Of a stretch of DNA of 7,836 nt, positions 3,001 to 6,000 are shown in pieces. The stretch is from the IMG/VR virus record IMGVR_UViG_2548876956_000009, positions 1 through 7,836 of that record, one strand, 5' to 3'. Position 1 is the stretch's first letter, and every line of letters begins with the position of its first letter. This stretch comes from a virus. Its lineage: Duplodnaviria; Heunggongvirae; Uroviricota; Caudoviricetes. A program made the position numbers.

Positions 3001-6000
3001 TGATTCGGATGTCTGGTCACGCAGCTGGTTGTCGCAGTGCCAGCACAACACCATTGCGCCGGTACCATAACGGTGAATGACGGTTTCGCTGTGATGATAA
3101 TCGCCGTGTGGCCACTGGCAGGATTTAATATGGCGCAACAGCCAGTCAGACAATGCACCAGCACCACCAGCAGCACGAATCACCCGTGCGTTACTGAAAA
3201 ACGGCAGCAATGTTTTGTCTTCCACCAGCGGCTGGCGAACGGCAGGAACGACCCCGGACGGCAGATTACGCATGCTTTTCGGTTCCGGCCCCACCAATAC
3301 CCGGGTATTGTGGAATACCGGCATGGATTCACGGCCCGGCTTAACGATCACCAGCCCGAGTTCCGGTACCAGAACAGGTCGAAGTAATACCCGCACGTTA
3401 CCTCCAGATCCGTTGCTGGAATGTGCGGGACGGACGCGGTGGGCGTTCGGAGTAAGGAAGCCTGACGGAGATTATCCAGTGACGATAATCGAGGCTGAGG
3501 GCTTTCTTAATCTCGTATCCGTGTCTGCGGTAACACTGAATCAGCCATTCGGCCTGTTCTTCAGTGCATGGAGGGTGTTGGTACCAGTCGGTTTTAAATA
3601 CGCGAGAACGCCGCCCATGCCTGCTGGCACGAACGGCATCAGAATTGTGATTTTTGGTATTGTGCGCCATTTGTTTTCTCTGCTGGCGCAGCAGGTGCCA
3701 GTTGTTCAGGCTGGCGTGCGAATTGTAAACCAGAATGCCAGGAAAAAACAAAACCCGCCGAAGCGGGTTAAGTGCGGGTGCGTTGAGGATGCCTGACACA
3801 TCAGAGGTGGCGAGGGATTCTCCCCCGCCTGGTCTCTTACTCCTCAGGTTCGTAAGCTGTGAAGACAGCGACCTCCGTCTGGCCGGTTCGGATTCGTACC
3901 TCGCAGAGGTCTTTCCTCGTTACCAGTGCCGTCACTATGACGGTTAAACAGATGACGATCAGGGCGATTAACATCGCCTTTTGCTGCTTCATAGCCTGCT
4001 TCTCCTTGACCTTTCGGTCCGTAAGAGGCAATCTATATGTGACGAGCATATAGGGGCCTCACTTCGATTTATAGTCGGGTGGGGCTTTTATCTATCTGCC
4101 GTTGGTGTTCATGCCCGAGGCAGATAGCCTCAAGCACCCGCAGCAATTCTACTTAACTCTGCCGTTACAGCAAACCGTTTTCGCCCGATATGGGAATTCC
4201 CATATCGGAATGAATTCAGTTCACCTGGCGAGGCTTAGCGTACAATTTTTTCCGTTTTGTGAGCTGCCCCTACATGCCGCTGGCGCGGCATCCGGAAAAA
4301 GAATCCACGTCCTGAAGGACGTGGAGGATGTCAAGTGCCTTTCCTGGTCCAGCCATATTTTTTGAATGCAGGCGCCGCTTCATCGGTTTGTAGCCATTCT
4401 GCAAATCGACGGGTTTCATCATTTGCATCCTGACGTACTGTAATGTTCATATCACGCCATATCACGTAGTCTGGCGCTATTTCCACGACATCACCAATTT
4501 CTGGATTACTGGCTGCCCAGTCAGCCCAGGTTATCCAGACATCTGCTCCAGGCTGATTCTCAAGAGCCTTACGTGCAGTTCCGCTATTGGGCGCATATAA
4601 AATAATATTTTTTCGGATTGCGGCGACAGTTTCTATATTCCCTTTACGTCCGGCAATATCTTCCCAGACGCCAGTGCCTGATGTATTACTGGTACCACCA
4701 CCATCATTAACAATTACGCCAATCCCGGGTCTGGTCAGGTCGTCAATACTCCGGATATTTTTAGGATTACCTTTCTTTACCAGTAAAATACTTTTTCGCA
4801 GATAAAGAGGCTGAATATCTTTTTCACTGAAGCTGTCTTTATGGTCCCGAATGATAGCCAGAGCAGATTGTTCTGATGCGCCAAACAAGATATCTGCATT
4901 TTTTTTGGCATCTTCATTCCATTTGTTCTGTGGACCGTAATGAACGTTCACTATAACACCTGTTTTTTCGGCATAAAGTTTGGCTGCTTCAAGCAAGGCT
5001 GTATGCGGGCCACCAGGACCATACAGATTGATATCAGCATAAGCAGCAGAAGACAGGAATATTAAAAAACCTGCCATTATGTTCCTCATAAAAAACTCCT
5101 TTTATTGGTTATCATGAAATAAAATTATAAACACTACAAATAATATATATTATATCCAGATAAACTTATCCGACTTTACCTCGTGCATAGCTTGTTATTT
5201 AAAGTTAACAAAATAAGGAAAATTATACGCATATTGAAGAGTATAAACCTTACATGTTGATTACATTTTTGTAATCAACATCCTGTTTGGAATAGCCAGC
5301 CTTTAATGGATAACTATTTCTGACAATGCAATGAGTATAATCAAGTCCATCTTCCACTGAGAATTAGAGGCGGCATGCTTTTTCCGGCTCTTGCCGGATA
5401 TCCGTAATTGTCCATAATCTGCAGATTTATACCTTCTGCATGACCTGTCAGCGAAAATTTGTCCGGTGTTTCTACGGGAATGACATCAAAAGTTACACGC
5501 ACTCGCGTTACCGTGTAGACCTACTTTCCTGCACTTGCAAGATCACAGTGGTGTAACCGTAACAGGAATTTATTCTCTGGACCGGCAGTAAATCCCTGAG
5601 TGGCGTGGTTCCCATATCAATTTCCCGCCAGGCAGCCTCCATTGCCAGCGTACAGGCTGGAGCCATGACCTGCCCTTTAAATCTGGCCCGACCATCCCAC
5701 CGGACGTGTTCTTCTCCCCTGAACTTAGGTACAGTCATCTCCAGTGGCACAAAAGTGTCAGCGCCATGATTTTTGACCGTTATCGCGCTACGGATATTTT
5801 GTTGACTGGTGAAAATCACCCCGCAGAATCAGGCTTATTCCCTTAACCCGGGATTTCATCCTGACCGCCGCCTCACTACGACCAATCAGACTGCCGATGC
5901 ATTTTACCTTCATTGTTAGTATCATGATTTCAGGCCTGCACCATCCGCTCATTGCCCGGACTTCCGACAAATCCCGGCAACCATATCCCGGTGCTTGTTC

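Follow-up and report, generated by a model that had tools for sequence, protein, structure and literature searches.

BstA, a prophage protein, is suppressed by a DNA element that lies within its own locus and that also works on another phage or a plasmid (PMC8585504). This element, aba, acts as DNA rather than as RNA or peptide (Owen et al. 2021, Cell Host Microbe, PMC8585504). The aba of BTP1, which overlaps the start codon, is 63 bp long and non-palindromic and carries terminal CCCGCC direct repeats (PMC8585504).

Here we describe a palindromic DNA element, the 'KilA-N box', one copy of which lies at positions 4185–4208 of a 7,836-nucleotide stretch of a Caudoviricetes virus record (IMGVR_UViG_2548876956_000009), hereafter called the window. 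The likeness to BstA/aba is that of a prophage protein with a KilA-N(-like) N-terminus and an element within its own locus, and the C-terminal domain of BstA is shared with the E. coli protein described below. A difference is that the KilA-N box has natural orphan copies, which are not reported for aba. The palindrome has no direct repeats and no sequence likeness to the 63-bp BTP1 aba. Its home is in genes with a BstA-C domain, elsewhere than the BTP1 aba, and no such gene surrounds the window copy. Moreover, 58 distinct canonical bstA loci lack the palindrome at the equivalent codons. We therefore rejected the idea that the palindrome is aba in the strict sense. As the two DNA elements are dissimilar, the analogy rests on the shared C-terminal domain and on logic, not on DNA homology.

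A second system with similar features is parS, a perfect or near-perfect 16-bp palindrome that is conserved across phyla, lies within the coding sequence of its binder (parB/spo0J), has more copies on the replicon and serves in segregation. The KilA-N box is also a phyla-wide palindrome within the gene of its putative binder, and one KilA-N-RHH gene with the palindrome adjoins a ParA-like gene and has two extra sites upstream. However, the protein folds are unrelated, parS differs in sequence and in its length of 16 bp, and binding by KilA-N proteins is putative.

Few DNA-binding domains are as common as KilA-N in phages and large DNA viruses, and the APSES regulators of the fungal cell cycle descend from it. 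APSES/KilA-N proteins (Mbp1, PCG2; MCB element ACGCGT) read short palindromic targets with a recognition helix and a wing. Phage KilA-N domains have the same fold, but the eukaryotic targets are only 6–8 bp long and have another sequence. In the literature that we searched, KilA-N proteins of bacteria and phages have no published DNA target, and there was no match for the sequence itself, for KilA-N together with a palindrome, or for later work on the BstA mechanism.

REP/RAYT and integron attC elements are imperfect, bulged palindromes that are extragenic, number tens to hundreds per genome and are tied to an HUH or tyrosine enzyme. Like them, the KilA-N box is short and dispersed, keeps its pairing through arm covariation, often lies just after genes and is sometimes clustered. 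Unlike them, it has 1–5 copies per genome, perfect symmetry, a home in coding regions and no such enzyme nearby.

The locus studied here belongs to the hypervariable replication-to-Q segment, where paa, ibrAB, a KilA-N gene and hok are swapped. Lambdoid morons share this segment of swapped cargo, but they are bounded by a promoter and a terminator, whereas the palindrome is derived from the backbone and is not a junction. The Roi protein of HK022 reportedly binds DNA inside its own gene, in the P–Q region. We rejected this parallel, as the Roi ORF gave no match to the KilA-N profile and the P–Q region has no palindrome with arms of at least 8 nt.

Results

The element at 4185–4208 consists of two 12-nt arms with no spacer and 100% complementarity, so the perfect 24-bp palindrome reported in a preliminary description of this DNA is real (12/12 pairs). 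It is single in the window even at 3 mismatches, was matched by none of 200 shuffles, and is exceeded in length by no other gapless palindrome of the window; 12-nt arms were reached by 1 of 2000 first-order Markov shuffles. These results agree with the earlier judgement that it is unlikely by chance. Nor does the whole 44-kb PPompW prophage contain a longer perfect palindrome. As single-stranded DNA, either strand is predicted to fold (–10 to –11 kcal/mol) into a stem of 10 bp capped by an AATT loop. A cloning linker or assembly artefact should be absent from independent sequences, but the locus with the palindrome was found in 577–580 complete E. coli genomes and 11 PPompW records, so the palindrome is neither. 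Overall, the site is present in 983 of 5,426 E. coli genomes (∼18% of complete genomes), with 4–5 copies in O157:H7.

Features of the neighbourhood are listed in Table 1. The palindrome does lie between the paa terminator and the hok promoter, as previously stated, although its distance to the –35 element is 10 nt rather than ∼12 bp, which places it at about –46 to –69 relative to hok. The promoter, assigned by eye, fits the start of the Rfam sok/hok leader at 4139, and a consensus scan did not report it. In prophages that lack paa, the palindrome is followed by a 34-aa hydrophobic ORF, of which the window retains only the end; blastn homology to the corresponding prophage loci (L003 and L002) stops at 4222–4225, and the extension to 4233 was made by eye.

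Table 1. Features surrounding the palindrome, in window coordinates
Feature	Position	Strand	Basis
mok/hok reading frame; hok itself 3837–3992	3837..4049	–	
hok mRNA leader and sok antisense region	3990..4139	–	Rfam RF01794, 103.9 bits
hok promoter: –35 TTTGCT 4174..4169, spacer 17 nt, –10 TAGAAT 4151..4146	4146..4174	–	by eye
41-bp remnant of KilA-N/BstA-C-type gene, codons ...S-R-D-M-G-I-P-I-S-E-L-I..., no reading frame left	4178..4218	+	blastn
24-bp perfect palindrome CCGATATGGGAATTCCCATATCGG, stand-alone ('orphan') copy of KilA-N-gene palindrome	4185..4208	.	chance tests and homologues
Last few codons and stop of 34-aa hydrophobic ORF, truncated by Tn3-type repeat	4214..4233	–	comparison with L002, L003, L004
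Solo Tn3-family (Tn21-type) 38-bp terminal inverted repeat, outer GGGG tip 4270/4271	4234..4271	–	
Intrinsic terminator of paa: 9-bp stem, then TTCTTTTT	4304..4325	–	
paa/adfO, cargo gene (AcfC-family adhesin, solute-binding-protein fold)	4331..5089	–	Pfam SBP_bac_11

The palindrome had also been proposed as a structural element at a cargo-gene junction, a possibility to be checked by alignment to prophages without the binding-protein gene. Such paa-less prophages have the palindrome in the same place, and hence it is part of the prophage backbone. The paa cargo is instead bounded by the solo Tn3-family inverted repeat. This repeat shows 31/37 identity to the Tn21-type repeat and has blastn matches in 434 plasmids, several of them at Tn3-family transposase genes. 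Homology to plasmid paa starts at 4268–4272, such that the outer tip of the repeat abuts the plasmid-shared paa module. A transposon or IS terminus (Tn3 family) is thus found at 4234–4271 and not at the palindrome, and the reading of the palindrome as a paa junction is already largely refuted.

The origin of the window copy can be traced by comparison with E. coli Z247, in which an intact KilA-N gene (locus L005) adjoins hokD in the same orientation. Window positions 4178–4218 match L005 3001–3041 at 88% identity, and on the hok side positions 3980–4151 match L005 2301–2493 (both by blastn). The gap between the two matching blocks is 507 bp in L005 and 26 bp in the window. Within the palindrome, 23 of 24 positions are identical to the Z247 gene, including a perfect 22-bp core. 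The product of the E. coli gene, encoded beside hok, is a 257-aa protein with KilA-N and BstA-C-like domains (WP_000200358.1; PADLOC BstA, E = 3e-21). These data show that a gene once beside hok was deleted to 41 bp that still hold the whole palindrome. Neither the window nor PPompW contains a KilA-N ORF, and the window copy is off the fixed genic position described below, making it an orphan. Its 22-mer core is identical in the E. coli KilA-N gene (L005, L121–L134) and in 40+ genic copies from other phyla. We conclude that the window palindrome is very probably a member of the KilA-N-gene palindrome family.

Collectively, the members of this family define a conserved 22–24-bp palindromic DNA element with consensus CGATATGGGAATTCCCATATCG and an invariant GGAATTCC centre, whose normal home is a fixed position within the KilA-N-domain coding region of a large phage and prophage protein family. 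The window copy is gapless, has 12/12 pairs and carries the centre GGGAATTCCC (family centre GGGAATTCCC / GGAATTCC). An example of a heterologous variant is GGTCTATGGGAATTCCCATAGACC. In data with one genome per species, the exact 22-mer occurs at 63 sites, compared to ∼0.03 expected in 596 Gb by our own arithmetic. These sites span Cyanobacteria, Bacteroidota, Bacillota, Chloroflexota, Spirochaetes and Proteobacteria (GC 0.29–0.70), and most lie within KilA-N ORFs at the same position of the domain. To avoid bias, we picked 102 homologues solely via parts of the protein not encoded by the palindrome. The spot had at least 10 of 12 pairs in 65 of them, versus 0 of 406 control windows of the same genes. 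The palindrome tracks the true Pfam KilA-N domain, whichever C-terminal domain is present.

Among 31 distinct genic versions, double (compensating) changes are seen at 7 of the 12 pair positions, and at least 15 perfect palindrome variants have compensating changes in both arms. The centre stays constant at 53 nt ahead of the GTW codons, and the edge is sharp, with pair 12 being Watson–Crick in 71% of genic contexts and pairs 13–15 at background. Only 6 of 25 mismatches are G–T, with no G–T excess, and this paucity indicates symmetry of the duplex itself and not just of a hairpin in the mRNA. For the DMGIPIS codons, just 3 DNA versions were found over 34 genes, compared to 15 for the equally conserved GTWVHP codons. 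However, third codon positions pair with third positions, so symmetry and a conserved peptide together nearly fix the DNA. What the frozen synonymous sites prove is hence a constraint on symmetry; they do not prove that the arms are recognised by sequence.

In six KilA-N genes of Bacteroidota (Pfam E = 4e-19), this DNA is translated in a different frame, giving RYGNSHI rather than DMGIPIS; no relatives of this subfamily were found in the viral collection. About 35% of the homologues have no palindrome, which implies that it is dispensable for the protein. As the segment is of the same length in these homologues, we rejected the possibility that the palindrome is an insertion into KilA-N genes.

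The KilA-N domain itself was modelled as a winged-helix DNA-binding fold (pLDDT 90.6), with Mbp1 and the PCG2–DNA complex as best structural matches (Foldseek top matches 1mb1, 1bm8 and 4ux5). A PDB sequence search gave weak Mbp1 matches only; the structural search confirmed the fold and yielded no closer DNA complex. In the sequence alignment, residues 57–63 (SRDMGIP), which make up most of the palindrome-encoded stretch, fall in a gap versus Mbp1.

Orphan copies were found in 49 distinct contexts, showing that stand-alone copies arise and persist repeatedly. Some reside in phages without any KilA-N gene, such as PPompW and Dhillonvirus KarlBarth, in both of which the site is the longest perfect palindrome of the genome; ∼60 Dhillonvirus records have it. 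Variants other than the window version occur as orphans as well, and there are arrays of variants, with two sites just upstream of the KilA-N-RHH gene mentioned above. Orphan neighbourhoods showed no consistent partner gene. Proximity to a replication module fits Dhillonvirus and Redjac but was rejected as a rule, since other orphans follow capsid, protease, RusA-like or integrase genes. The site mostly occurs in genomes without the gene: of the 5,426 E. coli genomes, 983 have the former and 137 the KilA-N gene.

Discussion

From patterns in the sequence, the palindrome family is probably a functional DNA recognition element. On balance, we lean towards the view that the window copy is a relic KilA-N box that is recognised as DNA, in trans, by KilA-N proteins, perhaps as a decoy. 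The element would work as DNA, either as a duplex or as an extruded or single-stranded hairpin, and would be recognised by KilA-N-domain proteins made by other prophages. Use in trans is favoured by the orphan contexts, including those on phages devoid of the gene, by the arrays and by the excess of E. coli genomes with the site over those with the gene, and the winged-helix fold makes KilA-N a plausible binder. Against this reading, about a third of the homologues do without the palindrome, orphans have no consistent partner gene, and the arrays place different variants side by side, which is easier to reconcile with recognition of shape, or with several specificities, than with one cognate site. 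Whether the window copy still functions is a closer call, and here we are slightly on the side of doubt.

More speculatively, and by analogy with aba, the copy on a gene-less phage would act against a resident KilA-N/BstA-C abortive-infection protein, by neutralising it or by marking the DNA as 'self' to it. PPompW would then replicate in cells holding a KilA-N/BstA-C prophage. We regard such a role of the window copy, as decoy or immunity site, as possible but rather unlikely. More doubtful still is the general form of this proposal, in which the family would be the cognate ligand of bacterial and phage KilA-N domains, with the site written into the codons for the last part of the recognition helix and for the turn leading into the wing, such that site and protein would change together, and orphans on PPompW and on lytic Dhillonviruses would be natural decoys that disarm KilA-N/BstA-C-type abortive-infection proteins encoded by resident prophages. 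Such decoys would amount to 'aba piracy', which Owen et al. argued should be prevented by cognate specificity (PMC8585504).

The alternative to be taken most seriously, although we think it unlikely, is that the window copy is an inert relic, 41 bp left over from a deleted KilA-N gene that serve no function today, spread by a successful hok-proximal block of STEC prophages. The homology of its flanks to the intact gene and the geometry of the deletion are what decay would produce, and both the window and the prophage contain a single copy. Lambdoid orphans of E. coli (paa-, small-ORF- and ibrAB-type) all share the flank on the side of the hok promoter and may derive from one event, conservation among near-identical prophages is by itself uninformative, and most genomes with the site lack the KilA-N gene. 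Against these points, the whole 24-bp element would be kept in only ∼2.5% of random 41-bp survivors of a 774-bp gene (own arithmetic). Furthermore, unrelated phages have the bare 22–24-bp unit without gene flanks, including Dhillonvirus, L050, L011, L031, L374, L419 and others.

Quasipalindrome template-switch mutagenesis is established in E. coli, and it could be argued that template switching during replication (hairpin-templated correction) keeps the symmetry while no protein recognises the site. The 'compensatory' changes would then be a mutational artefact. Templated correction would yield strict Watson–Crick symmetry without G–T tolerance, as seen here; the encoded amino acids change in pairs (M/I, T/V, A/A), suggesting that DNA drives protein; and the palindrome has been lost in a third of the family. 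What this mechanism leaves unexplained is the origin of a 24-bp palindrome at one spot of one domain family and its persistence across phyla, given that no control window reached 10/12 pairs. Nor does it account for the same DNA in a second reading frame, for repeated exact copies at unrelated non-coding and coding sites, or for the arrays near the promoter of a KilA-N gene. We therefore consider it improbable.

The preliminary description had raised the possibility of an operator for a dimeric regulator. This comes closest to our conclusion, but the likely partner is a KilA-N protein made elsewhere (putative binding) rather than a regulator of hok. As an operator or UP-like element at –46 to –69, the palindrome would modulate hok transcription, and its position 10 nt upstream of the –35 element is indeed kept in the paa-less prophages L003 and L004. 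In L010-type prophages, however, it is 20 nt further away, and it is missing from 933W (hokW) and from the hok loci of other phages. The Rfam hok/sok model ends at 4139 and homology to these loci extends only to 4181, which argues against the palindrome being a component of hok/sok. The identical element also exists in places remote from any hok, in other phyla and within coding sequences, and control of hok/sok is post-transcriptional. A role as hok operator is very unlikely.

Slightly less credible still is an RNA hairpin that acts as transcript-end stabiliser, RNase III site or terminator for the upstream gene (paa; the 34-aa ORF elsewhere) and shields hok/sok from read-through. Several orphans do follow a stop codon at 8–22 nt, namely that of the small ORF, of the Dhillonvirus helicase-primase gene, or of capsid and protease genes in L374 and L419, and the 10-bp stem is stable. 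Yet many copies lie within ORFs, G–U pairs are not tolerated, and a stabiliser needs neither exact sequence conservation nor a fixed GGAATTCC centre. An intrinsic terminator was rejected outright: there is no T/U tract on either side (flanks: minus strand GCGAAAACGG, plus strand AATGAATTC), the palindrome was not among the calls of the terminator scan, and paa has its own terminator 96 nt away.

At 24 bp, the palindrome is near the minimal length for homologous recombination, and mosaic breakpoints lie nearby, at 4181/4182 (versus palindrome-less hok loci) and ∼4225–4233. Nevertheless, a recombination or insertion-boundary site (a linker for module exchange, or the end of the mobile element that brought paa), also suggested previously, is the least likely reading: the paa boundary lies elsewhere and paa-less prophages have the palindrome too, we saw no second copy in the window, target duplications, partner site or recombinase association, and symmetry with covarying arms in a domain-coding region would go unexplained.

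Taken together, the sequence comparisons point to the KilA-N box being an apparently undescribed DNA recognition site, possibly an anti-defence decoy. Symmetry at one spot in many phyla and in two reading frames, together with copies on phages that lack the gene, provides a concrete candidate for a KilA-N target. Should the element be functionless, it would still be a striking self-maintaining palindrome inside a protein-coding domain. If the anti-defence role is true, ∼18% of complete E. coli genomes and a whole genus of phage-therapy-relevant lytic phages would carry a DNA-only anti-defence element, and this would explain why a scrap of a deleted gene has persisted beside hok in STEC prophages.

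Setting and local features

The 24-mer CCGATATGGGAATTCCCATATCGG consists of two 12-nt arms with no spacer. It is the longest gapless palindrome of the window and occurs there once, even with three mismatches permitted; arms of 12 nt were attained in one of 2000 Markov shuffles of the window, which bears out the preliminary description of a perfect 24-bp palindrome unlikely by chance. The second-longest palindrome, CAATACCCGGGTATTG, is a perfect 16-bp one within the DUF968 gene. The window corresponds to the early-right part of a lambdoid prophage of the PPompW type from Shiga-toxigenic E. 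coli (99.2% identity to LC5678xx records); on the minus strand, a DnaC-like replication gene is followed by a DUF1627 gene, paa/adfO, mok/hok, a DUF968 gene, rusA and Q. A full-length Rfam match to STnc100 sRNA (104 bits) lies downstream of the Q gene region. Our placement of the hok promoter by eye puts the palindrome at about -46 to -69. The palindrome was not called in a terminator scan, and a T tract is absent on both sides. As single-stranded DNA, either strand can adopt a 10-bp stem with an AATT loop (-10 to -11 kcal/mol).

Coordinates of features in the window and in comparison loci (L numbers) from other genomes and phages
Feature	Sequence	Position	Strand	Remark
24-bp palindrome	window	4185-4208
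hok promoter -35, TTTGCT	window	4174..4169	minus	by eye
hok promoter -10, TAGAAT	window	4151..4146	minus	by eye
hok leader + sok	window	4139..3990	minus	Rfam
mok/hok	window	4049..3837	minus
Solo Tn3-family (Tn21-type) 38-bp terminal inverted repeat	window	4234-4271		between palindrome and paa terminator
paa intrinsic terminator	window	4325..4304	minus
paa/adfO	window	5089..4331	minus
Second strong inverted repeat	window	5254-5281
16-bp palindrome	window	3295-3310
STnc100 match	window	204-370	minus	Rfam
34-aa ORF	L002	4033-4137
34-aa ORF	L003	4047-4151
34-aa ORF	L004	4045-4149
In-frame site, unrelated protein	L052 / L086	4476-4499 / 3681-3702
In-frame site, unrelated protein	L041	1938-1961
In-frame sites, unrelated proteins	L376, L388, L389, L391, L392
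54-bp unit, one	KarlBarth (L354)	2980-3080
54-bp units, two	PNS1 (L355)	2980-3140
Four different variants	L070	2527-2705		inside 180 bp
Variant pair	L095	7907-7974
Variant pair	L106	4454-4497
Variant pair	L114	1934-1997
Calothrix KilA-N-RHH region	L060	2005-4160

The idea of a structural element at a cargo-gene junction is not sustained: the palindrome belongs to the prophage backbone, since the paa-less prophages L003 and L004 carry it, in the order hokD, palindrome, 34-aa hydrophobic ORF. This ORF (e.g. MPDDISLAMEGALAVIVVVGVYCLVVLLMERLGN; no match in a Pfam search) is conserved after the palindrome in paa-less prophages, its stop 8 nt away, and just its last few codons remain in the window (4214-4233). 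In the L002 prophage, ibrAB replaces hok and the promoter-side flank is retained. Homology to plasmid paa homologues is confined to window positions of about 4268-5293. Directly left of this plasmid-shared module lies the Tn3-family repeat, its outer GGGG tip abutting the module; it is identical at 31 of 37 positions to what we take to be the Tn21-type repeat, and blastn located it in 434 plasmids, with several of the matches at genes for Tn3-family transposases. The transposon interior is absent. These observations suggest that paa came beside, or together with, a Tn3-family element. Near the other end of the module, ∼165 nt upstream of the paa start, is a second strong inverted repeat (ATGTTGATTACA-TTTT-TGTAATCAACAT; 12-nt arms, 4-nt loop), possibly a hairpin or a regulatory site for paa; a plasmid homologue of 86% identity retains complementarity just in the inner ∼10 nt of each arm.

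Origin in a KilA-N gene

In E. coli Z247 (L005), a 257-aa KilA-N-domain gene adjoins hokD and contains GCGATATGGGAATTCCCATATCGG, which codes for R-D-M-G-I-P-I-S-E. Window positions 3980-4151 align with the hok side of the Z247 locus and 4178-4218 (41 nt, 88% identity) with the interior of its KilA-N gene; the two blocks are separated by 507 bp in Z247 versus 26 bp in the window. The palindrome therefore lies in the little that is left of a deleted KilA-N gene, and the alignments show this as its origin. The N-terminal part of the Z247 protein matches the Pfam KilA-N domain (E = 4e-27), and its C-terminal half matches the PADLOC BstA model (E = 3e-21) and, by tblastn, BTP1 BstA. The family comprises 2,650 proteins at E <= 1e-10, named in sources solely 'KilA-N domain-containing protein'.

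Symmetry within KilA-N genes

Scanning one genome per species for the exact 22-mer core of the window palindrome returned 63 sites, compared to about 0.03 expected by our arithmetic. They span Cyanobacteria, Bacteroidota, Bacillota, Chloroflexota, Spirochaetes, Saccharibacteria and Alpha-, Beta- and Gammaproteobacteria (GC 0.29-0.70). In a set of 118 loci with this reference core, drawn from the window, E. coli, viral contigs and the genome scan, the core falls within an ORF that matches our own KilA-N profile in 42.

To guard against selection bias, we collected homologues by protein segments outside the palindrome alone. In this sample, 65 of 102 distinct loci had at least 10 of 12 positions paired within a 90-nt target window, versus 0 of 406 control windows from the same genes (maximum 9). 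The palindrome is absent from about 35% of homologues; as these are equal in segment length, an element inserted into KilA-N genes is ruled out. Its centre lies 53 nt before the G-T-W codons, or 56 nt in two of 31 distinct versions. At least 15 versions are perfect palindromes with differing arms (CCGATGCGGGAATTCCCGCATCGG, TCGAAACGGGAATTCCCGTTTCGA, GGTCTATGGGAATTCCCATAGACC and CCGAGGTCGGAATTCCGACCTCGG, for example), double changes affect 7 of 12 pair positions, and GGAATTCC is always retained at the centre. G-T mismatches are few (6 of 25, three of them in the central four bases), and the symmetry therefore belongs to the duplex, not just to an mRNA hairpin. Across 63 distinct genic contexts, Watson-Crick pairing is seen in 71% at pair 12 and drops to background at pairs 13-15, giving the element a sharply defined length of 22-24 bp.

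The DMGIPIS codons exist in three DNA versions among 34 distinct genes, differing in the central four bases alone, whereas the equally invariant GTWVHP codons of the same genes exist in 15 versions, with 44% third-position divergence downstream. In the frame of the palindrome, third codon positions pair with third positions, so symmetry and the conserved peptide together nearly fix the DNA. The lack of synonymous change proves that DNA symmetry is constrained, not that the arm sequence is recognised. Six Bacteroidota KilA-N genes (L057, L062, L074, L094, L098 and L116; Pfam E = 4e-19) carry the identical 22-mer at the corresponding position but one nucleotide out of register with all others, so that it is read as R-Y-G-N-S-H-I; the frame is regained about 29 nt further downstream. 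The palindrome tracks the KilA-N domain irrespective of its partner (BstA-C, ANT/KilAC-like, RHH, HTH_36 or none); canonical BstA genes (58 distinct loci, 40-100% identity to BTP1) lack it at the equivalent codons. Collectively, these comparisons establish, at the level of sequence, a DNA symmetry constraint within KilA-N genes across phyla, and place the window palindrome in the same family.

In an AlphaFold2 model of the E. coli KilA-N protein (pLDDT 90.6), palindrome-encoded residues 58-66 comprise the C-terminal end of helix 47-60, the G-I-P turn and the first part of a short helix that runs into the beta-hairpin. The best structural matches were the APSES domains of Mbp1 and the PCG2-DNA complex, and in the Mbp1 sequence alignment residues 57-63 (SRDMGIP) fall in a gap right behind the recognition helix. 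By the model and the Mbp1 comparison, the DNA element thus coincides with codons for residues that border the presumed DNA-binding surface.

Stand-alone copies and arrays

Among all loci collected, perfect 22-mers with no KilA-N ORF over the site (orphans) were found in 49 distinct contexts. These include E. coli lambdoid relics, about 60 genomes of Dhillonvirus (lytic E. coli siphophages), and Providencia, Hafnia and Klebsiella phages; some lie just past capsid or protease genes, or adjoin terminators. The Dhillonvirus site, 20 nt past the helicase-primase stop, is part of a 54-bp unit made up of a 27-bp motif containing ATTGGTTGC and the palindrome. More ATTGGTTGC repeats follow these units, and the region looks like an origin or promoter. 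Neither PPompW nor KarlBarth encodes a KilA-N protein by our own profile (E <= 1), and in both genomes the site exceeds every other perfect palindrome in length. In Siccibacter (L378/L117), the orphan lies between the two halves of another inverted repeat (GACGGTAATCG ... CGATTTACCGTC), yielding a larger composite hairpin.

Orphans in frame within unrelated proteins always encode x-x-G-I-P-x-x followed by acidic residues; examples are a 2,380-aa protein of a GC-rich (0.69-0.70) Azospirillum-type phage and a RecT-like C-terminal tail. L041 and L052 have about 25 nt right of the palindrome in common. Variants besides the reference were also found as orphans. For a symmetric degenerate pattern, 104 of 118 matching sites are perfect palindromes, compared to 16 of the 256 sequences allowed, with the reference variant dominating the count. 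Complete E. coli genomes have the site in 983 of 5,426 cases and the gene in 137; since every palindrome is counted once per strand, the 8-11 matches in O157:H7 strains amount to about 4-5 sites. By these sequence comparisons, stand-alone copies evidently exist, repeatedly, on phages with no KilA-N gene.

Non-coding clusters of two to four variants, 20-80 nt apart, occur at L070, L095, L106 and L114 (from Alcaligenaceae, Tolypothrix and proteobacterial genomes), with no KilA-N gene in the 8 kb examined. In Calothrix, a ParA-like ATPase gene and a small RHH gene are followed by a KilA-N protein with the same RHH domain as its C-terminus; one palindrome lies within the KilA-N-RHH gene and two other variants in the 345-bp upstream region, a layout that looks like a partition or operator arrangement.

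Possible function

We infer that a factor acting in trans recognises the element; KilA-N domains, being winged-helix DNA binders, are the most plausible candidates. A universal host factor is unlikely, because bacterial chromosomes are almost devoid of the site except in KilA-N genes and mobile DNA. The window copy may instead be an inert relic of the deleted gene; however, a random 41-bp survivor would hold the whole element just about 2.5% of the time (our arithmetic), and independent orphans exist. Symmetry may also be kept up by template-switch correction, with no function involved, but this leaves the origin and spread of the palindrome, its second reading frame and the arrays unexplained. 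An RNA hairpin and an operator for hok fit the data poorly, as does the recombination site proposed in the preliminary description; hok loci such as hokW of 933W lack the palindrome, homology stopping at window position 4181.

For trans recognition by KilA-N domains, the closest functional precedent is BstA/aba, in which the DNA element aba silences the KilA-N-like abortive-infection protein in whose locus it lies, and stays active on another phage or a plasmid (PMC8585504). By this logic, an orphan copy would shield its phage from a resident KilA-N/BstA-C protein. This protection step is speculative, because the aba of BTP1 is unrelated to the palindrome in its sequence and its location, and the palindrome is missing from canonical bstA. 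The family is similar in kind to known palindromes that serve protein recognition from within their binder's own gene (parS in parB; aba in bstA). The searchable literature, later BstA work included, held no match for the sequence itself and no paper that ties a palindrome of this kind to KilA-N genes. It is a realistic possibility that the mechanism is new, whether as a site and a recognition helix encoded in the same nucleotides or as DNA-only decoys against a defence protein.
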